Origin: a virus | IMG/VR virus record: IMGVR_UViG_3300045972_000791 | Location: 3,154-67,153 of that record | Length of the DNA: 64,000 nt | Strand: one strand, 5' to 3' | Part shown: positions 10,171 through 62,717 of the stretch, one piece after another | Layout: each line of letters opens with the position of its first letter | How positions within the stretch are numbered: the first letter of the stretch is position 1 | Position numbers and translations under genes: made by a program | Notes under the pieces: model-generated | What the model was told of the DNA's origin: nothing | Databases searched by the model: none | What the model saw: only the letters and a program-made list of their open reading frames with translations

Positions 10171-10207
10171 AATAAGCGCATACACCTTTTGGGTGTATGC
10201 GCTTATT
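10171..10207. terminator. Palindrome/bidirectional terminator
   Basis: 16-bp stem AATAAGCGCATACACC between convergent genes. Confidence 0.75.
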
Positions 10208-13274: not shown

Positions 13275-13304
13275 AATGCCCCATACTCGAAAGTATGGGG
13301 CATT
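13275..13304. terminator. Palindrome/terminator
   Basis: AATGCCCCATACT-CGAA-AGTATGGGGCATT. Confidence 0.65.
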
Positions 13305-15606: not shown

Positions 15607-16305
15607 ATGCTTGATACAACAATTTATAAACCCATGTTTTTAACGGAAGCTCCTGTAAAGGGAGCACAGAAACTTGTACTACATGTAACACCTGCAAATG
15701 ATGATGAAGAAGACGATAAACCAGATGATAAAAAGGATGATGCCAAAGCGTCAGTTGATACCAAAGATGATGATACAGCAGATAATAAAACTGCAAATAA
15801 AGCAGATGATAATAGCGAAGATGGATCTGATGAAGGTGACGATACTGATAGTGAAGATGACTCAATGGATGATGATTCTGAGTTAGATGATGACTCAATG
15901 GATGATGACAGTGGAGATAGTACTAGTGATGAAGAAATTCCAGATGAGGAATTCACATCACCAGACAGTCAAGAGAGTGAAAAAAAGTATCTCCTATTTA
16001 ACTCATTTAAAGAGTTATCAGATCAGGTTAAAAATATATCTGAACTAATAGTTTACACTATACCCAATGTTAATATACCTGAAATAAAAGATTCTTTAGA
16101 GGCTATAAATTCTGAAGTAAATGATATTTTAGACAAAATCAATTTGGTGGTAGCAGGTGACTTTGATAAAAAAGACTATAGAAACCTATTAGTTACATAT
16201 ACATATTTGAGCGGTTCCATGAATCAGATCAACAAATTTATTTCAACACTTTTATCTAGTTCTAAACTAAAATCTGAAAAACCAGCAGATAATAGTGAGA
16301 ATTAG
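15607..16305 (+). CDS. Acidic prohead core/scaffold-like protein
   Basis: Directly upstream of the capsid gene; MFLTE-A cleavage-like motif; Asp-rich linker. Confidence 0.55.
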   Translation: MLDTTIYKPMFLTEAPVKGAQKLVLHVTPANDDEEDDKPDDKKDDAKASVDTKDDDTADNKTANKADDNSEDGSDEGDDTDSEDDSMDDDSELDDDSMDDDSGDSTSDEEIPDEEFTSPDSQESEKKYLLFNSFKELSDQVKNISELIVYTIPNVNIPEIKDSLEAINSEVNDILDKINLVVAGDFDKKDYRNLLVTYTYLSGSMNQINKFISTLLSSSKLKSEKPADNSEN

Positions 16306-16317
16306 ATTTTATTATGA

Positions 16318-16330
16318 AACAAAATTATTA
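16318..16330 (+). promoter_or_regulatory. Late-type promoter (N7 variant) for the capsid gene
   Basis: AACA AAATTAT TA. Confidence 0.6.
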
Positions 16331-16470
16331 GAATTCTACGGGCAGGTATTTGTGAAGATGTACCTTATATATACATTGGGTTTGGGCGAACCCTATGTAT
16401 CCTTTTTAAGTCATTGGATTTGTCAAGGCTATATAAGGGTTCTATCACGTACCACATTTTAGAATGGAGA
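16331..16470 (+). ncRNA. Structured 5' leader of the major capsid mRNA
   Basis: Stems CCTTATATA/TATATAAGG and ATACAT.GGGTT/AACCC.ATGTAT between the promoter at 16318 and ATG 16477. Confidence 0.5.
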
Positions 16471-16476
16471 TAAAAT

Positions 16477-18129
16477 ATGTCTATTAGTTACCGTGTACAA
16501 CATACCTCGAAACAGAAAGATGGGTTTTCGCAGGTAATGAATGAGGCCGCAGAAGTTTTTGCTGGTGAGCGTATTAATATGCTTGGTGGCGGAATTGCTG
16601 AGATTCTTGCAGAAGACGTTCTCTTCAATACTTATAAGGACGAACTCCTTAAAGGTATGGATGCTGACTCTTCTCTAGTTCTTGAGCAGTTGATTGATAA
16701 CACTCGTACTCACTGTCTTTCTGAAAGTGCATTGTCTGGTATCCAGCCTATTACGGCTCTTACTATGCCTACACTTCGTAAGTCGTGGCCACGTATTGGT
16801 GTAACTGAAGCTATTCCTACTGAAGCTGTTAAGCTTCCTAAGTTCAGCATCAGCTACTTGACTCCTTACCTCATGGACTCTAAAGGCGTTAAACAGCCAC
16901 TTCCACAGGCTCTTCGTGATCCTGCTTTGGTTGGTGGTCTTGTTAACCGTAAAGAGTTGAAAGGTACGATCGTTGCTGTTCCTGCAACTGCTCCTGTAGT
17001 TCCTGCAGAGCAGGACGGATTCAAAGGCTTTAACGTTGCTAAAGCCGATGTTCTTATTGGCGATTTCGCTATTAAGAATGAATCCCTTGACCGTGACTTC
17101 TATATCACTCATGTTAAACTTGCTGGTGTAACTTATACTCCTGCTCAGTTAGCTGAAGGTGGTACAAAGGTTTCCTTGAGAATGGAAACTACTAACGCAC
17201 AGATTTATGGCGAAGTTAAAGACGGAAGCGTTACTGATGTTCTTTTTGGTAAAGTTGACGTTACTAGCGGTCTTGTAACTCTTGCTTGTGTTGGTGGAAA
17301 GATTGAAGAAGTAACTTACCTCGGATACATTTCTTCTGAAATGAATACCCGTACTGAGCAAGTTGGATTTGATATCAACCTCAAGAACATCGATATTCCT
17401 ACTGGCGCACATATCACTGCTCCACTCCCAATCGAGTGGCTTCAGGATACTATGGCTATGTATCAGATCGATGGCGCTATGAAGGTTATTGATATTATGT
17501 CTGATACGCTTGCACAGAAAATTGATATGGAAGGTATTGCTTTCCTTCAATCTTCTTACGTAGAGAGCACAAATGCTGGTGTTAATTACAGCTATGAGTT
17601 CGATGTTAAGCCACCTGCTGGTTTTGCTGGTTCTCCTAAAGAATGGCGTGACGAGTTCAGAACTACTCTGGACTTTGCTGCTATTACTATGAAGAACGAT
17701 ACCTCCATGAATCAGGGTAAATTCTCTATTCTTGGTAATGATATCGACACACAGATCATCCCTAACGTTGAGTGGATCTTCAATAACAACGTTGATGAGC
17801 GTGGTGGCGTTGATGTTAACTACAGCATTGGTGCATACAGCGGTTCTAACCGTTACACAATGGTTTCTACCCCTAACGTTCCTGCTAACGCAATGTACTT
17901 GATGTACATTCCTACTAATCAGGATCAGATGACCTTTAAATACTACCCATATGCATTCGCTGTAGAGCGTGCAAATGGTTATGTTGACCCTAAGAACCCT
18001 AACGTTCCTTCCGTCATCATGACACGTAGGCAGGTATTTGAGAAGTTCACTAACCTCATCGCTAAGATTGAGATTAAGAACAACAGCAAGCCTATGTTTG
18101 CTCAGGGTAACCGTGTACCTGCAGCCTAA
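16477..18129 (+). CDS. Major capsid protein precursor
   Basis: 550 aa, strong high-expression codon bias, propeptide ending near CLSE-S, located between scaffold-like and terminase genes. Confidence 0.8.
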   Translation: MSISYRVQHTSKQKDGFSQVMNEAAEVFAGERINMLGGGIAEILAEDVLFNTYKDELLKGMDADSSLVLEQLIDNTRTHCLSESALSGIQPITALTMPTLRKSWPRIGVTEAIPTEAVKLPKFSISYLTPYLMDSKGVKQPLPQALRDPALVGGLVNRKELKGTIVAVPATAPVVPAEQDGFKGFNVAKADVLIGDFAIKNESLDRDFYITHVKLAGVTYTPAQLAEGGTKVSLRMETTNAQIYGEVKDGSVTDVLFGKVDVTSGLVTLACVGGKIEEVTYLGYISSEMNTRTEQVGFDINLKNIDIPTGAHITAPLPIEWLQDTMAMYQIDGAMKVIDIMSDTLAQKIDMEGIAFLQSSYVESTNAGVNYSYEFDVKPPAGFAGSPKEWRDEFRTTLDFAAITMKNDTSMNQGKFSILGNDIDTQIIPNVEWIFNNNVDERGGVDVNYSIGAYSGSNRYTMVSTPNVPANAMYLMYIPTNQDQMTFKYYPYAFAVERANGYVDPKNPNVPSVIMTRRQVFEKFTNLIAKIEIKNNSKPMFAQGNRVPAA

Positions 18130-18621: not shown

Positions 18622-18659
18622 ATAATTCCCTATACCTTCCCCAAGGTATAGGGAATTAT
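18622..18659. terminator. Palindrome/terminator
   Basis: ATAATTCCCTATACCTT-CCCC-AAGGTATAGGGAATTAT. Confidence 0.65.
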
Positions 18660-18731: not shown

Positions 18732-19535
18732 ATGAGAAAATATGAGTCTATAATTGGTAAACAATTTAATAGATTAACTGTATTATCTGAAGACAAACTT
18801 GTTGGTAAACAAAGATATTTCAATTGTAAATGTGAATGCGGTAATATTACCTCAGTCCGTATGTCTAGATTAAAAAATAAAAACAAGCCAGCTATATCTT
18901 GTGGTAAATGTAAAGATAGTATTATGGAAATAAAATTAGTTGGAAAGAAATTTGGGATGTTAACCATATTATCTCTTGATTTCAATAGTCCTATGAGTGG
19001 GATTAGAGGTGGTCCACCGAGAAGAGTTATTTGTAAATGTGAATGTGGAACAATAAAATCAATACCGTTATATTATTTAAAAGATACAAAATCTCCCACA
19101 TTATCATGTGGATGTTATAGAGATTTTATAAAAACTAGTCATGGAATGAGTAAAACACGTATATATAGTATTTGGCAGGGAATGAGAGATAGATGTAATA
19201 ATCCAAAAAATGTTTCATATCCTAATTATGGTGGTAGAGGTATATCATATTTAGATAAGTGGGAAGATTTTGAAGAGTTCTATAGAGATATGGGTGATCC
19301 TCCAACTGATAAACATGAACTTGATAGAATTGATAATGATAAACATTATACAAAGAAAAACTGCCGATGGTCTACTCATAAAGAACAGCAGAATAATAAA
19401 CGTAATAGTCATTTTATTGAATTTAATGGAAAGAAACAAACTCTTACTCAGTGGTCAGAAGAAACTGGTATAAAAAAGGAAACATTACGATATCGGTTAT
19501 ATAATAATTGGCCACTGGAAAAGGCTCTTTCATGA
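18732..19535 (+). CDS. Free-standing HNH homing endonuclease
   Basis: G..F.RLTV...CKCECG...SCGC repeats; W.GMR.RC.NP..Y..YGGRGI; LDRIDN...Y...NCRW....Q.NN. Confidence 0.88.
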   Translation: MRKYESIIGKQFNRLTVLSEDKLVGKQRYFNCKCECGNITSVRMSRLKNKNKPAISCGKCKDSIMEIKLVGKKFGMLTILSLDFNSPMSGIRGGPPRRVICKCECGTIKSIPLYYLKDTKSPTLSCGCYRDFIKTSHGMSKTRIYSIWQGMRDRCNNPKNVSYPNYGGRGISYLDKWEDFEEFYRDMGDPPTDKHELDRIDNDKHYTKKNCRWSTHKEQQNNKRNSHFIEFNGKKQTLTQWSEETGIKKETLRYRLYNNWPLEKALS

Positions 19536-27925: not shown

Positions 27926-27964
27926 AAAATTAGCTCTATACCTTATGGGTATAGAGCTAATTTT
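27926..27964. terminator. Bidirectional terminator between tube and portal genes
   Basis: AAAATTAGCTCTATACC...GGTATAGAGCTAATTTT. Confidence 0.8.
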
Positions 27965-37046: not shown

Positions 37047-37054
37047 GAGGGATT

Positions 37055-37375
37055 ATGAACAAAGTAGCTCAATATGTAATAGATCGTCTTAAAGAACCAT
37101 CTTCATGGCGTGGTCTTATTATGGTAGGTACATCTACTGCAAGTATGTGTGGTGCAAAATACGATCTATCCACAGATCAAATTGTAGCAATTATTACTAC
37201 TGGTGTATTCGTATCTGGTATGGTAGGTAGTTTAATTCCAGATAAAATGAAAGCATCAGGTAAAGGTGTGATTGAAACTGTAACTGACAGTATCAAAGCA
37301 GTTGGTGATTCAGATGACGCAGTTAGAGATAATTCTGTAGGTATTAAAGTAATTGAAGTATTTGATAAAAAGTAG
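37055..37375 (+). CDS. Holin-like small membrane protein
   Basis: RLKEPSSWRGLI plus two hydrophobic segments; GGAGG before ATG 37055. Confidence 0.55.
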   Translation: MNKVAQYVIDRLKEPSSWRGLIMVGTSTASMCGAKYDLSTDQIVAIITTGVFVSGMVGSLIPDKMKASGKGVIETVTDSIKAVGDSDDAVRDNSVGIKVIEVFDKK

Positions 37376-37445
37376 TTACCGTATTCAGTGGATTTTTTAT
37401 TTAATATTATTTATATAGAATAAATAAAAATCCATTGGAGGAATT

Positions 37446-37583
37446 ATGCAAATCAAAGACCTTGCTGGCCGTAAAAATGTTGTAAAAATGGTTAAATATA
37501 TATGTCATAAGTGTGGTGTAGGTGGTCTCTTTCCCAAGGTTAAGAAAGTTGTGACCTGTAGTTATTGTGGTCACGCATCTTAA
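37446..37583 (+). CDS. 45-aa zinc-ribbon protein (below the ORF-track cutoff)
   Basis: GGAGG-N5-ATG; MQIKDLAGRKNVVKMVKYICHKCGVGGLFPKVKKVVTCSYCGHAS; followed by a terminator. Confidence 0.75.
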   Translation: MQIKDLAGRKNVVKMVKYICHKCGVGGLFPKVKKVVTCSYCGHAS

Positions 37584-37603
37584 CCATCTGTTTCAAATAC
37601 ATT

Positions 37604-37642
37604 ATGCTCTATTCCAATTAAGGAATAGGGCATATTTTTTTT
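37604..37642. terminator. Terminator
   Basis: ATGCTCTATTCC...GGAATAGGGCAT plus T-tract. Confidence 0.75.
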
Positions 37643-38455
37643 TTAATCCTTACCATATAATGCTTCTTCTACGGACCATCCTCTTTTTAGACGACCACGA
37701 ATAGTGCTACGATGTATACCTACTTCTTCTCCCCACATAGCTAATGATTGAATTTTTCCATTATACTCAATATTATGATTGTTAGATCTATTATTTTGCT
37801 GTTCTTTCATTGTAGACCATTTACAGTTCCTCTTTGTATAATGACCATTACTTTCTATTCTATCTAATGTATGTTTATCTGTAGGTGGATCACCCATATC
37901 CTTATAGAATTCTATAAAATTTTCCCATCTAACTGCATAAGATACACCTTTTCCACCATAATTAGGATTATTAGAGTTACATCTATCTTTCATCATAACC
38001 CAAATATGATAAATACGAGTACCCTCCATTCCATGTTTTGTATTGGCTTTAGATAACATTTCTTTTCCATAGCATCCACATGATTGTGTTCGTCCAAGAT
38101 TTAAACGACTTCCATCTACTTCTTTAGTATTTCCGCAATCACATTGACACATATAATGCCAATGTAAATTTTTTAATATAGTGGGATTTAATACTATTAA
38201 TCTCCCAAATCTTCTACCAATCATTTTACTATGGGTTCTAATGTTTCTTGCTGTATTTTCTTCTTTAATTCTTTCTTTATTAAAGCAACCACATGATGAT
38301 GTTTTACCGGATCTAAGACGAGTTCCATTATATTCTGATTCATTTCCATTACAACTACATCTACATTTATAATACAATTCCCCATATCTGTTATTAGCTT
38401 GTTTTAAAACAGTTAACCTTCCAAATACTTTTCCAATCATATTTATTTTTGCCAT
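37643..38455 (-). CDS. Free-standing HNH homing endonuclease
   Basis: Same family as 18732; start re-assigned to ATG 38455 behind GGAGG. Confidence 0.88.
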   Translation of the reverse strand: MAKINMIGKVFGRLTVLKQANNRYGELYYKCRCSCNGNESEYNGTRLRSGKTSSCGCFNKERIKEENTARNIRTHSKMIGRRFGRLIVLNPTILKNLHWHYMCQCDCGNTKEVDGSRLNLGRTQSCGCYGKEMLSKANTKHGMEGTRIYHIWVMMKDRCNSNNPNYGGKGVSYAVRWENFIEFYKDMGDPPTDKHTLDRIESNGHYTKRNCKWSTMKEQQNNRSNNHNIEYNGKIQSLAMWGEEVGIHRSTIRGRLKRGWSVEEALYGKD

Positions 38456-38491: not shown

Positions 38492-38527
38492 GTTAGTTCC
38501 CCATACTAAAAAGTATGGGGAACTAAC
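38492..38527. terminator. Palindrome/terminator
   Basis: GTTAGTTCCCCATACT-AAAA-AGTATGGGGAACTAAC. Confidence 0.65.
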
Positions 38528-40963: not shown

Positions 40964-40971
40964 ATAATCTC

Positions 40972-40994
40972 GCATATACCTATATGGTATATGC
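40972..40994. repeat. 23-bp palindromic direct repeat, copy 1
   Basis: GCATATACCTATATGGTATATGC. Confidence 0.9.
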
Positions 40995-40998
40995 GAGA

Positions 40999-41955
40999 TT
41001 AATCTAGACTTAATGTATACTCTTCCATAGCACTGTATAGCTCTTTACTAATTGCCCTACCTACAAATTGATCTTTCATTATTTGTAGAGCTTCTTCAGG
41101 AGTGTGTCCTTTTCTATACGGCCTATCAGCAATTAGAGCAGAGTAAACATCTGCAGTATTAATGATTCTAGTGTTTCGACCTATTTGATCGCCTTCTATA
41201 CCCCTAGGGTATCCTCTACCATCTAGTCTCTCATGATGATCCCTAATATTACTTAGGATTACTTCATTAGAAATAGTCTCTTTTATATAATCATACCCAA
41301 AAACCGTATGATCCTTCATTATATCGTACTCTTTATCAGTTAAACTCTCAGGCTTATTTATAATCTCGTCAGGTATAAATATTTTACCTATATCGTGTAG
41401 TATTGCTCCTGTACCTAAGTCAGATAATTCATCGTGATCTAAATTATACATTCGATGAGCAAGTACTAGTGATAAGGTTACAACATGTATGGCATGAGCA
41501 TACTCATATCCATTATGAACAATGATTTTACTGATTTCTTTAAATACATTAGGATTATTAAGACATGATGTTATTATACTATCTACCAATGTCCTACACC
41601 TATCTATATTACTACTGACTGCAATTGGGTTATTATAAATTTCAGATATATAGTTTGTAGATACTGTAAATAAAGCATCTATTTTCTTTGTAACTGAATA
41701 ATTCTTATTTGCAACTATATTCTCTAAAACTTCTTCCGTCTGACGGGTAAAAACTTCCATATCACCATATCTTAAATATATGAACTCAGTACTAGATCTA
41801 TTTAATCTCTCAATATCTCTTCTAGTAAATAATTCCCCTGCCGGTTTGTATAAGATATAATTATCTCTATTCTTTATAAAGACTGGGAAGTTTAAAGGAA
41901 AATCATCAATAAATGATGATACAAGGATACTTTTATATAAATTATCCCTACTCAC
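40999..41955 (-). CDS. HD-GYP cyclic dinucleotide phosphodiesterase
   Basis: H..HV, LHDIGK, KP..LT..EY..MK.H...G, HHERLDG.GYP.G, AD.YSAL...RPYR. Confidence 0.92.
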   Translation of the reverse strand: MSRDNLYKSILVSSFIDDFPLNFPVFIKNRDNYILYKPAGELFTRRDIERLNRSSTEFIYLRYGDMEVFTRQTEEVLENIVANKNYSVTKKIDALFTVSTNYISEIYNNPIAVSSNIDRCRTLVDSIITSCLNNPNVFKEISKIIVHNGYEYAHAIHVVTLSLVLAHRMYNLDHDELSDLGTGAILHDIGKIFIPDEIINKPESLTDKEYDIMKDHTVFGYDYIKETISNEVILSNIRDHHERLDGRGYPRGIEGDQIGRNTRIINTADVYSALIADRPYRKGHTPEEALQIMKDQFVGRAISKELYSAMEEYTLSLD

Positions 41956-41995: not shown

Positions 41996-42016
41996 CATTA
42001 AATATTTGGGAGATCT

Positions 42017-42039
42017 GCATATACCTATATGGTATATGC
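42017..42039. repeat. 23-bp palindromic direct repeat, copy 2
   Basis: Identical to 40972-40994. Confidence 0.9.
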
Positions 42040-42049
42040 AGATTTTTAC

Positions 42050-48721: not shown

Positions 48722-49530
48722 CTTCTTCCTCCAAGTGGAACAGATAAAGCTTCTTCTACAGTCCATCCTGCATATATTCTGTTTCTTACAATACTAGGAT
48801 CCATATTATTAAGTCTAGCTAGTTTAGTAATAGGCGCAGTAATTCCGTTATAAGTTTCAATTCTATTATTTCTTTTATTTAAAGCTTGTTCAGAATAATT
48901 AGCCCATGTACAATTATCTTTAGAATATGGTTTATTATTTTTAACTCGTTCTAAAGTTGCATCTTCTGTTGGAGGATTACCCATATCTTCATAGAATTTT
49001 TCAAAAGAATTCCATGAAGTATCATACTTTATACCACGACCACCATATCGTGCATATGCGCTGTTTTTCGGATTGTCACATCTTTGTCTCATACTAGACC
49101 ATATACTGTAAATTCTTGTTTTTGTCATACTATGTGTTGTAGCAATATTTGCCATAGTTTCAGATCTGAAACATCCACATGACTTTGTATGATTAGATTT
49201 AAGTTTTCCACCTTGTACAATACAATTATTTCCACATTTACAAAGACAATTCCAAAATTTATGCTTACTATCAGAGTGTGAAAATGATGTCACTACCAAT
49301 TTATTAAATTTTTGTCCTACTAAGTCATATCTATTACGAGTTAATGTACATCCACATGATAATGCAGGTGTATCTTTATGAGTTAATCTAATTGTAGGAA
49401 AATTTTTTATATTTCCACATTCACATTTACATTTATATATAGCATTATTACCAATTGTACCTTCTCTAGATACCACTATAAGTTTTCCAAACTGTCTTCC
49501 AATCATTTTAGAATCATTAGATTTTCCCAT
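48718..49530 (-). CDS. Free-standing HNH homing endonuclease
   Basis: Same family as 18732 and 37643. Confidence 0.88.
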   Translation of the reverse strand: MGKSNDSKMIGRQFGKLIVVSREGTIGNNAIYKCKCECGNIKNFPTIRLTHKDTPALSCGCTLTRNRYDLVGQKFNKLVVTSFSHSDSKHKFWNCLCKCGNNCIVQGGKLKSNHTKSCGCFRSETMANIATTHSMTKTRIYSIWSSMRQRCDNPKNSAYARYGGRGIKYDTSWNSFEKFYEDMGNPPTEDATLERVKNNKPYSKDNCTWANYSEQALNKRNNRIETYNGITAPITKLARLNNMDPSIVRNRIYAGWTVEEALSVPLGGRR

Positions 49531-49612: not shown

Positions 49613-51364
49613 TTATTTTGAGTTCATTTCCATATCAATCAAACCAACTGATACGAATTGACCTGAAGTTATCAGTAGACCAATAATAGAGAATGTTGAA
49701 CGTACAATCTCATAATCTGTTTCTGCAGAGTTGATAATTTCAGTATTAGGGAACTCTTCAAATTCCATTGTCCTAGCATTGAATATAGTCTTCCAATCAT
49801 TACAACAAGCACGTACAATTAAATCAATAGCCTGAGCAGAGTCAGTACCAGTAAGAATACTTGGATGCTTTGCAATAACTTTATCATGTGCAGATTTATT
49901 ATCAATAAAAGAAAGTACTTTACAGAATACTTCTTTAAATGCATCTGCTACAGCATCAATAAGACGATATACTTCCATAGTAGTGAGGAATGTCTTATCA
50001 AAGATTTCATTAGCTAAAACATTTCTAAACTCTTGTTCAGATAGGATCTTAGGGATAATAAGATTTCCACCCATTACAATACCAAACTTGAGTGCTGATT
50101 GACATGCAAATACTGCATCTTCTACAAGAAATTTTTTCGTTTCAATTTCTTGAGGAGTCTCACCACCAACCTTAATAACTACCATACCATCAGATAGTGA
50201 TGCAAGACGATTCTTTAATACTACTACATTAGTATCACGTTCAATATGATCTTCTATTTGGAGAAGCTTTTCTAATTCTCCACGTATAGAATCTATCTTA
50301 GCTGTGATATCTTCCTGACTACCTTTACCACCAAGAAATTTAGTGACTAAATCAGTACCTTTAATTGCAGAGCACTGACCTAAACGATCAAGAGGGAATT
50401 CTCTAAGAGATTCACCTGCAATCTTATTGTAGTAAGCACAACCAATATAGATTGAAAGATCTTCAAATTTAGCAAACGCTTCAGGTGATTCAGTAGCCAT
50501 ATCGATTGCAGCAATTGGCATAGACATGTTCTTAACTTTATTAACATGTAAGAATTCTCTAAAGTTTGAATCATAACCTTTAGCTACTAATAGTAAAGAT
50601 GCTCCCATACCACAAATCTTCTGTATGAGATCACCAACTATTGTCATATCTTCTCCACCTAAAGTACCATTAGTCATAAAAATGAATACATTTTCATGCT
50701 CACATTTAATGCCAGTCTCAGTTGCAGAAGTAGCAAAATACGGATTAATGATACCACGGTTAACTTCAATACCACTAGTTCTTTCATAGTATGTATTAGA
50801 AGTTGAGCCTGATTCTACAGTAATAGAACAATCTCTACCAACTTCAGTAAAGATTTCATGTATCATATCAGCTAATTTAGCATCACTATTAGTTGAAATA
50901 TATGCAACATTCTTAAGGTGATTAGTATCTTCTAAAGAAATAGCACGCTTGAGAATTTCTTCTCTAAGCATATCAGACATGATGTTAAGTCCATCAACAA
51001 CATCTTTAGGAGATAATTCATTACCTGCTGCAGTTACGGCTTTATAAATCTCATTAGATGCAACGACTGCCGAGGTCGATCCATCACCAACACTACGTAC
51101 TAGACGAAAGCTAATACGTTTAAGAAGATCAAGAATAGTTCTAGGGAATGGATGCTTGAAGAAAATTTTACGAAGAACTGAATAACCATCCTTAGTTGCA
51201 AAATGCTGAAGATTATGATCTTGTACAATTGCATGTTTTCCATATGGTCCGAGAGTACTACCTACTGCACCTGCAATGTAATCTAGGGTTTCACCCATCA
51301 ATTTCTTACATTCAACATCATTAATAACATTTGACGAAAATACATTTTCCATAGTTCTCTCCAT
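49613..51364 (-). CDS. groEL: Phage GroEL-like chaperonin
   Basis: STLGPYG, TKDGYSV, VGDGSTSA, IKVGG.T..E......VEDA..A..SA...GIV.GG. Confidence 0.9.
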   Translation of the reverse strand: MERTMENVFSSNVINDVECKKLMGETLDYIAGAVGSTLGPYGKHAIVQDHNLQHFATKDGYSVLRKIFFKHPFPRTILDLLKRISFRLVRSVGDGSTSAVVASNEIYKAVTAAGNELSPKDVVDGLNIMSDMLREEILKRAISLEDTNHLKNVAYISTNSDAKLADMIHEIFTEVGRDCSITVESGSTSNTYYERTSGIEVNRGIINPYFATSATETGIKCEHENVFIFMTNGTLGGEDMTIVGDLIQKICGMGASLLLVAKGYDSNFREFLHVNKVKNMSMPIAAIDMATESPEAFAKFEDLSIYIGCAYYNKIAGESLREFPLDRLGQCSAIKGTDLVTKFLGGKGSQEDITAKIDSIRGELEKLLQIEDHIERDTNVVVLKNRLASLSDGMVVIKVGGETPQEIETKKFLVEDAVFACQSALKFGIVMGGNLIIPKILSEQEFRNVLANEIFDKTFLTTMEVYRLIDAVADAFKEVFCKVLSFIDNKSAHDKVIAKHPSILTGTDSAQAIDLIVRACCNDWKTIFNARTMEFEEFPNTEIINSAETDYEIVRSTFSIIGLLITSGQFVSVGLIDMEMNSK

Positions 51365-51378
51365 AAAATAAAATGTGG

Positions 51379-51390
51379 TAATTTACTGTT
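51379..51390 (-). promoter_or_regulatory. Late-type promoter
   Basis: AACA GTAAAT TA upstream of groEL. Confidence 0.65.
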
Positions 51391-51405: not shown

Positions 51406-51441
51406 CTGAATCTGCATACCATCTAAGGTATGCAGATTCAG
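51406..51441. terminator. Palindrome/terminator
   Basis: CTGAATCTGCATACC...GGTATGCAGATTCAG. Confidence 0.65.
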
Positions 51442-56155: not shown

Positions 56156-56839
56156 CTATGTTAACTGCGCTTGTTTATTAAATGGTCTTACAACTGTTTT
56201 GAGAAAATAATCTACTCTCTTTAAATATTTTTGTGGATCACGATTTATTCTTACATTACGTGGTCCAGCATTATAACATAGTAATGCAGATTTTCTTCTC
56301 TTTTCCTTGTTTTTAACAGAAGCATAATTTTGGTGAAGTATCTCAAAATAGTATGCTCCCATTCGGACTGCAAAGTCCGAGTCAGTTAGAAGACGTTTCT
56401 TCAGTTGGGCATCTGTATAAGTACCTAGCTCTGGATGTGCAGCTAATACGGCTCTACAGGCAGGGAGTTGTGTTTGCATCTCTCCTAATGATGCTCCTCC
56501 GTCTCCAACTTTATCAAGCAATCCTGCGTGTGTTTCAGCAAGTGCGATAGCTTGAGTATCTTCAGGGTGGCCCGTTTCCTTGCCCACTGAATGGGCTAAA
56601 CGTAGAATTTTAGTTTGTTCATGAGTCAAACCTAATTCATGGCCTGCAAGTTCAACCTTCCCATTGGGCGGTGATACTGTCCCTGTACATCGCTGTAGGT
56701 CAATGACCACAGCTGGTTTGATTGAAGCACCAGCAATAATTATTGTTAAACTGATAATTAATGATGATACAACAACCGCCAGTAGTGCTTTAGTCACCTT
56801 TTTGATAACAGGTACTTCAGCAACAGTGTGTCGGTTCAT
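56156..56839 (-). CDS. SLT-family lytic transglycosylase with N-terminal transmembrane anchor
   Basis: AIALAET (catalytic Glu), SLG.MQ, GAYY, YNAGP; hydrophobic stretch ALLAVVVSSLIISLTIIIAG. Confidence 0.8.
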   Translation of the reverse strand: MNRHTVAEVPVIKKVTKALLAVVVSSLIISLTIIIAGASIKPAVVIDLQRCTGTVSPPNGKVELAGHELGLTHEQTKILRLAHSVGKETGHPEDTQAIALAETHAGLLDKVGDGGASLGEMQTQLPACRAVLAAHPELGTYTDAQLKKRLLTDSDFAVRMGAYYFEILHQNYASVKNKEKRRKSALLCYNAGPRNVRINRDPQKYLKRVDYFLKTVVRPFNKQAQLT

Positions 56840-60234: not shown

Positions 60235-60270
60235 TAATACCCCTATACCTAAAGAGGTATAGGGGTATTA
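60235..60270. terminator. Palindrome/terminator
   Basis: TAATACCCCTATACCT-AAAG-AGGTATAGGGGTATTA. Confidence 0.65.
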
Positions 60271-60357: not shown

Positions 60358-60750
60358 ATGAGTGTATCCGAGAAAGCATCAAAAGCAGTTAAGGACGTGA
60401 TCGTTGAGGAGGCTTCAGCTACATCGATCTTTCTGGCTTCCATCAAGGAAGCAGCTAAAGCTATCAACTTCGACAAAGTAATTGCTGATGTCAAAGCTGG
60501 TATGGAAAAATCTTGTGAGGCGTATACCACCCGCAACGAGAAGTATCTTGCTGAACTAAAGGAAAAAGCAGAAGAAAAGAAGGAAAAGAAAGAAGAGAAG
60601 AAAGACCTTTCTGAGTTGGAAGAGGAAATTGCTGAAATCGAGAAGGATATCGAAGAAGGCGAGGAAACTCTTGCTGAAGCTCGTATCCAGTTGAAGAAAC
60701 TCCAGAAGAAGGCGGCTAAAACTAAAGCTAAAGCTGCTGAGAAGAAGTAA
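60358..60750 (+). CDS. Charged coiled-coil protein, highly expressed codon usage
   Basis: AAGGAG Shine-Dalgarno; E/K-rich; followed by a terminator. Confidence 0.7.
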   Translation: MSVSEKASKAVKDVIVEEASATSIFLASIKEAAKAINFDKVIADVKAGMEKSCEAYTTRNEKYLAELKEKAEEKKEKKEEKKDLSELEEEIAEIEKDIEEGEETLAEARIQLKKLQKKAAKTKAKAAEKK

Positions 60751-60793
60751 AAAATAAGCTATTACCCTCACAGGTAATAGCTTATTTTTTTTT
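60751..60793. terminator. Bidirectional terminator
   Basis: AAAATAAGCTATTACC...GGTAATAGCTTATTTT plus T-tract. Confidence 0.8.
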
Positions 60794-60799
60794 TAGATT

Positions 60800-61654
60800 T
60801 TAGTAGTCGATACCGTCAAAAAGGCTACCGGACTCTTTTTTAGCAGAGGAAGAAGATTTAGACATACCTGCCTGAATGATACGCTTGTACTCATTTTTAG
60901 AAATAATAATGCAGCTACCAACTTCTTTGAAAACGATAGAAACAACATTCATTGCTTCTTTAACGGTTTCAGCTTCTTTCTTGTCGCCATTCTGCTCGGC
61001 AAGACGGATAGCAATACCTTTAAGACCATCAAATACTTTAGCAGCATCACGAGCGTGAGCAACGACTTTCATGAGGTCTTTGAAAGGTTGAATAGCATGC
61101 TGAGCGTTTACGCTAGCACCTTTCTTAACTTTACCAAGGCAAAGCTTCTTAACTGCTTCAGAAACACTTTCTTCATTCTTAGCGCCAATAGCCATAAGAA
61201 CGATTTCTTTAGCGGAAGTGTTAGCCTTAACTTCAAATTTACTAGCAATACCCTGAAGAACAGTGGTTATACGCTGAACTTCTTTAGCAGTTGCACCATT
61301 AGCTACAGCTTCATGAACGTCAACTTTGACAGTACCAAAGTTAGAAGCTTCTTTCTCAACACGCTCAATCCATTTTTCGTCAGCGCCAACAAGACCAAGA
61401 ATTTTAGTCCAGAGATTAGAGAAGAAGTTCTTAATTTTTGCCCACAATTTTTTGATGAAGGCAACAAATTTTGCCCACCACTCAGAAACGCCTTCAGTAA
61501 GAAGTTCAGCGTTTTCAGTGATGATTGCTTTATGCTCAATAGCCATCATTCTCTGGACCAAGTTGCCATAAGTTACGTTGGCTTCAACAAGGATCTCAGT
61601 AAGGGTTTCAACTGGAAGTCCAGCATTTTGTTCAACGCTCTCAACTAGAAACAT
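60800..61654 (-). CDS. Abundant inner-head protein
   Basis: Multiple LxE sites then LTE-G...W.K...FIKKLW.KIK.FF amphipathic motif typical of jumbo-phage internal head proteins; strong codon bias. Confidence 0.7.
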   Translation of the reverse strand: MFLVESVEQNAGLPVETLTEILVEANVTYGNLVQRMMAIEHKAIITENAELLTEGVSEWWAKFVAFIKKLWAKIKNFFSNLWTKILGLVGADEKWIERVEKEASNFGTVKVDVHEAVANGATAKEVQRITTVLQGIASKFEVKANTSAKEIVLMAIGAKNEESVSEAVKKLCLGKVKKGASVNAQHAIQPFKDLMKVVAHARDAAKVFDGLKGIAIRLAEQNGDKKEAETVKEAMNVVSIVFKEVGSCIIISKNEYKRIIQAGMSKSSSSAKKESGSLFDGIDY

Positions 61655-61727
61655 AATTTTCTCCTTAAATTTTGGTAATACTTCAATTTTAATTATCTGA
61701 ATTCCAAAGGAATTTCATTCTATCCTA

Positions 61728-61755
61728 TCTACGGGCAAGTAGTCAGATGTACCTT
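61728..61755 (+). repeat. Bipartite motif shared with the capsid leader (16335-16366)
   Basis: TCTACGGGCAAGTA-GTC-AGATGTACCTT versus TCTACGGGCAGGTA-TTTGTGA-AGATGTACCTT. Confidence 0.8.
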
Positions 61756-61760
61756 GAAAA

Positions 61761-62717
61761 TCAAATAATAATTGATCCAGAATCCGAGGACTGGGCGGTT
61801 CTCGCACTACTGGACACTTCAATATCTTGTTTCCTAGTGACGGATAAAGTTGAGCGATTTGCTAAGTCACTTTCAACAGCAAAAACTTCAGCAACATCTC
61901 TGAATCGTTTTGCTATAGCTTCTTGTTTTTTAGCAACATCCTTCTTATCTCTAGAAATACTTTGAGCATGCATCTCAATGTATTCAGCATATGATATAAA
62001 CCAATTAGCTACATTTTTTCTAAAGTGTAAGAATAGGAAGATTATATCTCGCACATGAAGAACTAACCATATAATAAAAAAGGCTAGAACACCAATTGCA
62101 ATAGGATCTTCTTTAAGCATTGTGGACTCTTTCTTAATAGTAGTCTTTAAGAAGTTATCCATTTTACCATTACGAATATTTTCAACAGTAGAAGATAAAC
62201 CCGATAGTGCTACATCATCTTCCATATTAAATGTCTTCATTTTCATCTCATATTCACCACGAGGAGTCTTTACATAATCAACTCCACGTAGAATAAATGT
62301 AGCCGTTGCATGAAATACATTTAGTACTAATGACATATAAAGATTAGTAATTAAGTATGATCCGGACTCAAATCCGTAAGCAAAATACTGAGCACGAGAC
62401 TGAAGGAATTCTATAAGAATTTGTAGTTCAGATAGTTTAGAAGATATCTGTTTACCAACTAATGAATTTAATTTATCAACACATAAAGATGCATCCATGA
62501 ATTCTTTAATGTGAATTACATGACCTTTAGATGCTCTAATCTTTTTAATAACATCATCAGAAGCAAAGTCTTTACTTTCAGTGATAGATTTAAGTCTATC
62601 AAGAAGAAGATTAGCTGTAGAATCAGTATATTTATTTTGAGCAGATTCATTTAATCTTACAAACCATCTTTCATTTTCATTACCTGCAATTTTAGCATAT
62701 TCTCTGATAGATTTCAT
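61761..62717 (-). CDS. Probable virion (head) protein
   Basis: LNE-S and LKE-D sites, hydrophobic segment. Confidence 0.55.
   Translation of the reverse strand: MKSIREYAKIAGNENERWFVRLNESAQNKYTDSTANLLLDRLKSITESKDFASDDVIKKIRASKGHVIHIKEFMDASLCVDKLNSLVGKQISSKLSELQILIEFLQSRAQYFAYGFESGSYLITNLYMSLVLNVFHATATFILRGVDYVKTPRGEYEMKMKTFNMEDDVALSGLSSTVENIRNGKMDNFLKTTIKKESTMLKEDPIAIGVLAFFIIWLVLHVRDIIFLFLHFRKNVANWFISYAEYIEMHAQSISRDKKDVAKKQEAIAKRFRDVAEVFAVESDLANRSTLSVTRKQDIEVSSSARTAQSSDSGSIII

Follow-up and report, generated by a model that had tools for sequence, protein, structure and literature searches.

Two non-coding regions of a phage genome, 45 kb apart, share a bipartite sequence motif. One copy lies ahead of the gene for the major capsid protein, and the other, in the same DNA orientation, lies ahead of a gene that is read from the opposite strand and probably encodes an internal head protein. 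The question raised by this arrangement is whether the motif places the two genes under a common control, either through their messengers or as a site on the DNA, or whether it belongs to one of the two loci and is only resembled at the other. We have addressed this question in a window of 64,000 nucleotides, bases 3154–67153 of a 67,153-base record, and positions below are those of the window unless the record is named.

Judged from its sequence, the window belongs to a jumbo phage of the AR9/PBS1 kind. Completeness of the record is put at an estimated 26%, and the window represents roughly a quarter of the phage. The best matches of the capsid protein among known phages are those of AR9, PBS1 and their kin, with 39% identity to the AR9 major head protein; the next are those of Staphylococcus and Listeria jumbo phages and of Yersinia phiR1-37. 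At the DNA level, there is no similarity to known phages at either locus. The phage is known solely from pond metagenomes, three of which hold its DNA, and no RNA sequencing run holding it is listed.

The likeness to AR9 extends to the late promoters. In the part of the AR9 account that bears on this point, the late promoter consensus is given as AACA-(6N)-T-A/G, the last base being the transcription start, and 17 late promoters are described in which the distance from AACA to T-A/G is different or one or two bases depart from the consensus (PMC5312081). In the present window, the pattern AACA.{4}ATT[AG] has 19 matches, of which 12 fall in intergenic sequence, about 6% of the DNA; the other seven are in coding DNA, all seven on the sense strand. 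Because of this intergenic enrichment, we consider the phage to have late promoters of the AR9 kind, and its late genes are predicted to be transcribed from AACA-N4-ATT-R promoters. AACA followed by T and an A or G start is present ahead of both leaders considered here. The tetranucleotide and the T-R start element are those of the AR9 nvRNAP promoters; the differences are that this phage adds a preference for ATT before the start and that the spacer, 6 N at the 61820 promoter, is 7 N at the capsid promoter. The shared motif sits downstream of the promoter and outside it. At the other promoter matches whose nearest downstream gene start is within about 70 nt, the leaders measure 12–67 nt, and the predicted 147- and 166-nt leaders of the two head genes are, on that account, unusually long. 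The AACA-N4-ATT-R pattern could help to delimit late transcription units in AR9-like phages that have not been cultured.

The motif consists of two halves separated by a spacer. Copy 1 reads TCTACGGGCAGGTA-TTTGTGA-AGATGTACCTT, with a spacer of 7 nt, and copy 2 reads TCTACGGGCAAGTA-GTC-AGATGTACCTT, with a spacer of 3 nt, both on the + strand. The copies are identical at 24 of the 25 motif positions, the sole difference being a G/A transition, and in a local alignment taking in 150 nt on each side the likeness ends at 32 and 28 nt, respectively. The differences between the copies are thus concentrated in the spacer, the 25 flanking positions holding the one transition. Each copy lies between open reading frames, copy 1 within the intergenic region 16306–16476 and copy 2 within 61655–61760. 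The motif is, therefore, as the preliminary description had it, in its sequences, coordinates, degree of identity and spacers and in the non-coding character of both copies. The coordinates of the features discussed here are collected in Table 1.

Table 1. Features of the two motif-bearing loci, with operon-end hairpins and late-promoter matches of the window
Feature	Position	Strand	Remarks
Gene upstream of the capsid gene	15607..16305	+	232 aa, acidic, scaffold- or protease-like; weak PHROG 'peptidase' match
Predicted capsid late promoter, AACAAAATTATTA	16318..16330	+	AACA-N7-T-A; predicted start A16330; kept in L004
Structured 5' leader of capsid mRNA	16330..16476	+	147 nt, predicted
Motif copy 1	16335..16366	+	Leader +6..+37; mostly paired in cis with 16441-16465
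Closing helix, 3' arm	16441..16465	+	UCU, UCAC, GUACC, UAGAAU; predicted
Major capsid protein gene	16477..18129	+	550 aa; PHROG 20655, E 1.6e-145; Pfam Gp23
Terminator hairpin, bidirectional	60749..60790	.	18-19 bp, T-runs on both sides, between convergent genes
Probable internal head/virion protein gene	60800..61654	-	284 aa
Predicted leader of the 284-aa gene	61655..61820	-	166 nt; overlaps the end of the upstream gene by its first 60 nt
Motif copy 2	61728..61755	- (as read in mRNA)	Leader +66..+93, reverse complement; same DNA orientation as copy 1
Predicted late promoter, AACAAGATATTG	61820..61831	-	Start at G61820; lies within the 3'-terminal part of gene 61761-62717
Virion structural protein gene	61761..62717	-	318 aa; homologue of AR9 gp214
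Operon-end hairpins	18622-18659, 60235-60270, 27926-27964, 40965-41001, 42013-42043		
Operon-end hairpins (more)	51406-51441, 10171-10207, 38492-38527, 13275-13304		
Late-promoter matches, examples	9209, 18594, 20393, 24688, 38536, 54160, 57412	+	
Late-promoter matches	e.g. 54096, 51379, 49561, 43631, 41984, 14995	-	

A search of the whole 67-kb record for further copies revealed no third one. The only other match is to half 1 with two mismatches, at 56453 in coding DNA and without half 2. A partial copy at about 37115–37135 on the - strand is likely to be due to chance, because it falls inside a probable + strand gene. This gene, 37065–37375, which was not called, reads by eye as about 103 codons with an ATG that follows GGAGGG; it occupies part of an apparent intergenic region of 596 nt. 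The exact motif of this phage occurs in no other viral contig searched.

Several familiar classes of element were considered for the motif and set aside. A solitary CRISPR repeat was rejected by reasoning, since the two copies are unequal in length, and so were direct repeats bounding a mobile segment, since structural genes fill the 45 kb between the copies. A scan for intrinsic terminators, defined as a GC-rich hairpin with a T-run, found none at either copy, and the terminators of this phage are perfect hairpins of 12–18 bp, unlike the motif. Rfam models gave no match at the gathering score anywhere in the window, none at E ≤ 1 at the capsid locus and only two chance-level matches at the second locus; a tRNA scan found nothing.

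The ends of operons in the window carry long perfect hairpins with stems of 12–18 bp and loops of 4–6 nt, often without a T-run. Six of them have a common apex, (T)ATACC-loop-GGTAT(A), and those at 40972 and 42017 contain an identical 23-nt palindrome. These hairpins may act as a signal for termination or for RNA processing that is peculiar to the phage RNA polymerase.

At the capsid locus, copy 1 had been described as beginning 5 nt after the predicted transcription start and as lying inside a structured leader. The former holds if the AR9-type AACA-N7-TA promoter at 16318–16330 is used; the latter agrees with the fold predicted by ensemble folding, in which residues 16333–16338 pair with 16460–16465, 16345–16349 with 16449–16453 and 16352–16358 with 16441–16448, with pair probabilities of 0.91–0.99. 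The cis pairs so formed are AUUCUA:UAGAAU, GGUAU:GUACC, GUGA:UCAC and AGA:UCU. The predicted helix begins at +4 of the capsid mRNA, and its 3' arm stops one base short of the Shine–Dalgarno sequence GGAG at 16466–16469, which is itself not clearly sequestered in the fold of this phage. The three fold z-scores calculated in this work are weak (−2.15, −1.08 and −1.79), and for the capsid leader RNAalifold offers as an alternative a small 5' hairpin in which one pair is changed on both sides, from U-A to C-G.

The 12-mer TACCACATTTTA, at 16450–16461 beside the capsid Shine–Dalgarno sequence, recurs inverted at 51369–51380, directly after the predicted late start of gene 49613–51364; it is AT-rich, and its recurrence may be due to chance.

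A search with the capsid protein identified in viral contigs only L004, with 77% identity, and L005, with 42%; the relatives in metagenome contigs are 32–53% identical, and in genome contigs there are none. L004, an 11.7-kb IMG/VR contig that also carries an orthologue of the 15607..16305 coding sequence, is the only close relative found. Comparison of the two capsid loci reveals 72% identity in the capsid coding DNA and 80% over the whole leader, rising to 91% in the promoter and first 19 transcribed nucleotides and 92% in the leader core 16363–16441. Because the leader is in these parts more conserved than the coding DNA that follows it, we take copy 1 to lie in a selected cis element. Between the two conserved parts is the block 16348–16362, where only 6 of 15 positions are identical. 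This fast-evolving block takes in the spacer together with AGATGTA in half 2, the last four bases of which, CCTT, are conserved.

The motif itself is, accordingly, divided in its conservation. L004 keeps 12 of the 14 positions of half 1, with C and G at the others, and 6 of the 11 of half 2, which there reads GGAAAATCC, giving 18 of 25 for the whole. In this one relative, half 1 is thus largely kept, and 5 of 11 positions have changed in half 2. The L004 version of the motif has no second copy in viral contigs, its only match being L004 itself. In the predicted folds, the long-range helix is kept in L004 through changes in its strands: GGUAU:GUACC becomes GGUGCU:AGUACC, and at the 5' end UUCCA pairs with UGGAG, which includes the Shine–Dalgarno sequence. 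Covariation in this leader is judged from two sequences and has little power.

The leader core 16363–16441 contains two hairpins inside the CCUUAUAUA:UAUAUAAGG helix; it matches no Rfam family. A search with the pattern of this core gave one extra match, by eye an unrelated, coding-like stretch, which we attribute to chance. The capsid leaders of L008, L010 and AR9 run for about 100–150 nt behind promoter-like matches of the AACA type (AACG in L008), as judged by eye. They share neither sequence nor architecture, including the helix from the 5' end to the Shine–Dalgarno sequence, with the leader described here. In L008, whose capsid protein is 53% identical, the segment GAACGTTAAACTTAGATAATTC at 121–150, upstream, resembles AACAAAATTATTAGAATTC of this phage; the predicted leader of L008 is also 147 nt long, and the remainder of it is unrelated.

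Copy 2 lies 6 nt past the stop codon of gene 61761–62717 and 73 nt ahead of the ATG of gene 60800–61654. The 284-residue product of the latter gene had been called an abundant inner-head protein. Bearing on this identity are a syntenic position with AR9 gp215, a virion structural protein, 30% identity to it over the N-terminal 98 residues (BLASTP E 4e-9) and a Pfam phiKZ_IP match of 26.3 bits, under the cut-off of 27. A tblastn search with the product found no match in known phages. On these sequence comparisons, the product is likely to be an internal head protein, though weakly identified. The gene for AR9 gp215 likewise has a late-promoter match of its own. Searches with three flanking proteins revealed no close relative of this locus in viral contigs. 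For the 427-residue protein encoded nearby, there is no close relative in genome contigs, and the homologue alignment reached relatives of only 24–30% identity; closer homologues, at 56% and 57%, are on JGI contigs. Compared with one another, the translation-initiation regions of the two genes rank 46th in likeness among 2701 pairs.

Whether the resemblance of the two copies exceeds chance depends on how it is scored and on what it is compared with. A shuffle test of the specific pattern found 2 occurrences in the window and 0 in 100 shuffles; this test is post hoc. A broader test used 36 intergenic regions of at least 20 nt (about 4 kb), compared all against all in both orientations; the set included 37047–37642, which probably contains the uncalled gene. 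When scored without regard to composition, the pair reaches 34, a value attained by the top pair in 18 of 60 intergenic shuffles, and is not significant. Composition-weighted scoring, which rewards GC-rich matches (the genome is 33% GC), gives 28.8 bits and ranks the pair third among intergenic comparisons, where only two pairings of terminator hairpins score higher; none of 200 intergenic shuffles reached this score with its top pair, the mean maximum being 22.7 (sd 1.7) and the highest 28.3. In the window as a whole, 26 pairs have at least 28.8 bits, this one ranking last among them, and 3.8 ± 2.0 such pairs are expected by chance, as estimated from 60 dinucleotide-preserving shuffles. Some of the other 25 pairs fall in mutually repeating stretches near 19, 37 and 49 kb. 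The significance is conditional, since it hinges on both copies falling within non-coding DNA, which makes up roughly 6% of the window. We conclude that the shared motif is a two-copy similarity that exceeds chance modestly, and just for non-coding DNA.

In the repeating stretches, 19219–19472 and 37715–37968 form a 254-nt inverted repeat of 75% identity, and there are shorter matches of 19032–19058, 19077–19115 and 18822–18847 with 49348–49434. The 254-nt repeat and the 49-kb matches are probably paralogous genes.

As copy 1 would be transcribed in the + strand leader and copy 2 read as its reverse complement from the predicted late promoters, the two mRNAs are complementary. This part of the preliminary description is borne out, given those promoters: segments of 14 and 11 bp would flank an internal loop of 7 × 3 nt, the sole G/A difference giving a G-U wobble. 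The core duplex has a calculated energy of −40.8 kcal/mol; opening the two sites costs 13.1 and 12.3 kcal/mol, leaving a net gain of about −15 to −17 kcal/mol, and co-folding both leaders yields a structure that includes the duplex and lies 17.2 kcal/mol below the separate monomers. The GGGCA (CGGGCA) of the capsid leader is in an internal loop and the UUGCCC of the other leader in a hairpin loop atop a long AT-rich stem, and both are predicted to be mostly unpaired. The energy of the whole-leader duplex, −68.0 against a mean of −45.1 ± 7.9, is second among 574 pairs and does not discriminate; nor does the longest Watson–Crick/G-U run between the leaders. The AR9 capsid and gp215 leaders, delimited from inferred promoters, have no inverted complementarity, scoring 13.5 bits against 11.9 ± 1.7 for shuffles.

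These properties invite the reading that the two messengers pair. The capsid mRNA would be bound at +6 to +37, late in the infection, by the leader of the 284-aa gene; pairing would start at the exposed GGGCA/UGCCC cores and displace the capsid cis helix near the Shine–Dalgarno sequence. Either or both of the mRNAs would then be translated or degraded differently, through protection of the 5' end or as a target for a double-stranded RNase, and the amounts of the head proteins would be coupled. We regard this reading as rather unlikely, although a good deal speaks for it. The 25 complementary positions, the favourable core duplex and co-fold, the G-U wobble at the one difference, the two GC-rich cores predicted to be unpaired and the location of both sites in predicted late leaders of head genes count in its favour. 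The identity between the copies within this genome (24/25) is higher than that between copy 1 and its orthologue (18/25), and copy 2 carries this phage's own state of the fast-evolving half 2, as co-evolving partners would give. The clustering of differences in the spacer looks like constraint on the two halves, and the hly–prsA2 pair offers a precedent (PMC8722363, in the portion drawn on here; see below). On the other side, AR9 is without such complementarity, the motif of the capsid leader is predicted to be mostly sequestered in cis, the energy of the whole-leader duplex is not exceptional enough to discriminate, the match exceeds chance no more than modestly, and in L004 half 2 differs at 5 of its 11 positions. 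The stronger form of the idea, that pairing through the exposed GC-rich core would open the capsid cis helix and so couple two head components made in fixed proportion, is a shade more doubtful.

The other ways of giving copy 2 a function fare less well. A site on the DNA that a phage protein, such as a regulator of very highly expressed late head genes, would recognise whichever way the genes run would suit the common + strand polarity of the copies in the genome, their proximity to late promoters, the retention of 12 of 14 positions of half 1 in L004 and the weak dyad TAC-N6-GTA of half 1, which is extended to CTAC-N6-GTAG in copy 2. Such an operator would be expected to have a fixed spacing and to be conserved; here, the spacing of the halves differs by 4 bp, which corresponds to about 140° of helical twist, and half 2 has diverged in L004, and for these two reasons we disfavour the orientation-independent site that had been proposed. 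Besides, the distance to the predicted start is +6 in one case and +66, in the opposite orientation, in the other, there are just two copies in 67 kb, and the analysis identified no candidate binding protein; the site is, in our estimation, improbable. Less probable by far is a + strand transcript at the second locus, whether an antisense small RNA or a small gene, that would carry the motif in the sense of the capsid leader. The ATG inside half 2 does open a 72-aa frame on the + strand there (61747–61965) and, by eye, a frame of 34 codons at the capsid locus, but only the first three codons are common to the two frames, and a small open reading frame starting at this ATG was rejected because L004 has no ATG at the corresponding place. 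Between 61655 and 61728, the + strand is devoid of late-promoter matches. Sigma-70-like sequences occur at the background rate (7 against 7.7 expected), and the strong predicted terminator at 60749–60790 would block read-through from the upstream + strand gene. The antisense RNA of the preliminary description is thus left unsupported, having no promoter of its own and a terminator upstream.

The explanation that we prefer, at a little short of an even chance, is that copy 1 serves within the capsid leader as one strand, the 5' arm, of a cis helix and that the resemblance of copy 2 to it is a relic or a coincidence. Copy 1 would be native to the late mRNA of the major capsid protein, starting 5 nt past the predicted start. 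As 5' arm, it would take part in a long-range helix by which the 147-nt leader is closed onto the stretch directly before the Shine–Dalgarno sequence. In the closed leader, the 5' end would be shielded and the access of ribosomes determined in cis. Copy 2 would then be a 28-nt look-alike in the leader of 60800–61654, antisense relative to that gene. It might have arisen as a short ectopic duplicate of this part of the capsid leader and have survived because it landed in non-coding DNA, which we think unlikely when taken by itself; a coincidence at the edge of chance seems to us slightly less likely again. Counting for the cis helix with a look-alike are the maintenance of the helix in L004, a leader that is well conserved, a half 2 that has diverged, the composition-blind score, the chance level of 3.8 pairs per shuffled window and the AR9 leaders without inverted complementarity. 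Counting against it are the intergenic result of 0/200, the clustering of differences in the spacer, the G-U wobble, the exposed cores and the long leaders, together with the lineage-specific match in half 2, the weak fold z-scores and the two-sequence basis of the covariation. The transcription starts and folds used in this explanation are predicted, and from them we infer the cis role and the absence of a role in trans. The solid results are that this is an AR9-like phage with late promoters of the AR9 type and that its capsid leader is more conserved than the coding DNA behind it.

The preferred cis helix has parallels in bacteria and phages, where highly expressed mRNAs may begin with stabilising stem-loops or carry structured leaders; ompA, aprE and the SP82 stabiliser are examples. 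As in those, structure is predicted at the very beginning of the messenger, the capsid helix tying the 5' end, from +4, to the region adjacent to the Shine–Dalgarno sequence in a leader that is conserved beyond its coding sequence. It differs from them in that its architecture is not recognisable in L008, L010 or AR9 and corresponds to no Rfam family. Were the two leaders to pair, a functional analogy would be the anti-antisense activation brought about by small RNAs, as in DsrA–rpoS: an RNA acting in trans on the 5' arm of the capsid helix would free the 3' arm beside the ribosome-binding site. The trans partner here would be the leader of another mRNA, and the capsid Shine–Dalgarno sequence is not clearly sequestered to begin with.

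A literature search, at the level of listings, found no description of direct mRNA–mRNA regulation between phage structural genes. If true, pairing of the two leaders would be a new viral way of setting the ratio of structural proteins, one that does without a regulatory protein or a small RNA made for the purpose, and would extend the few known bacterial mRNA–mRNA interactions to phages. One of these, in the portion of the published account that concerns us, is the pairing in Listeria monocytogenes of the hly 3' UTR with the prsA2 5' UTR, which protects prsA2 from RNase J1 (PMC8722363). Measured against that portion of the account, the two phage messengers likewise have complementary untranslated segments and encode functionally linked proteins, and one of the segments lies so close to the 5' end of its mRNA that pairing could hinder decay from that end; the phage pair, in which pairing is hypothetical, differs in that the complementarity runs from leader to leader.
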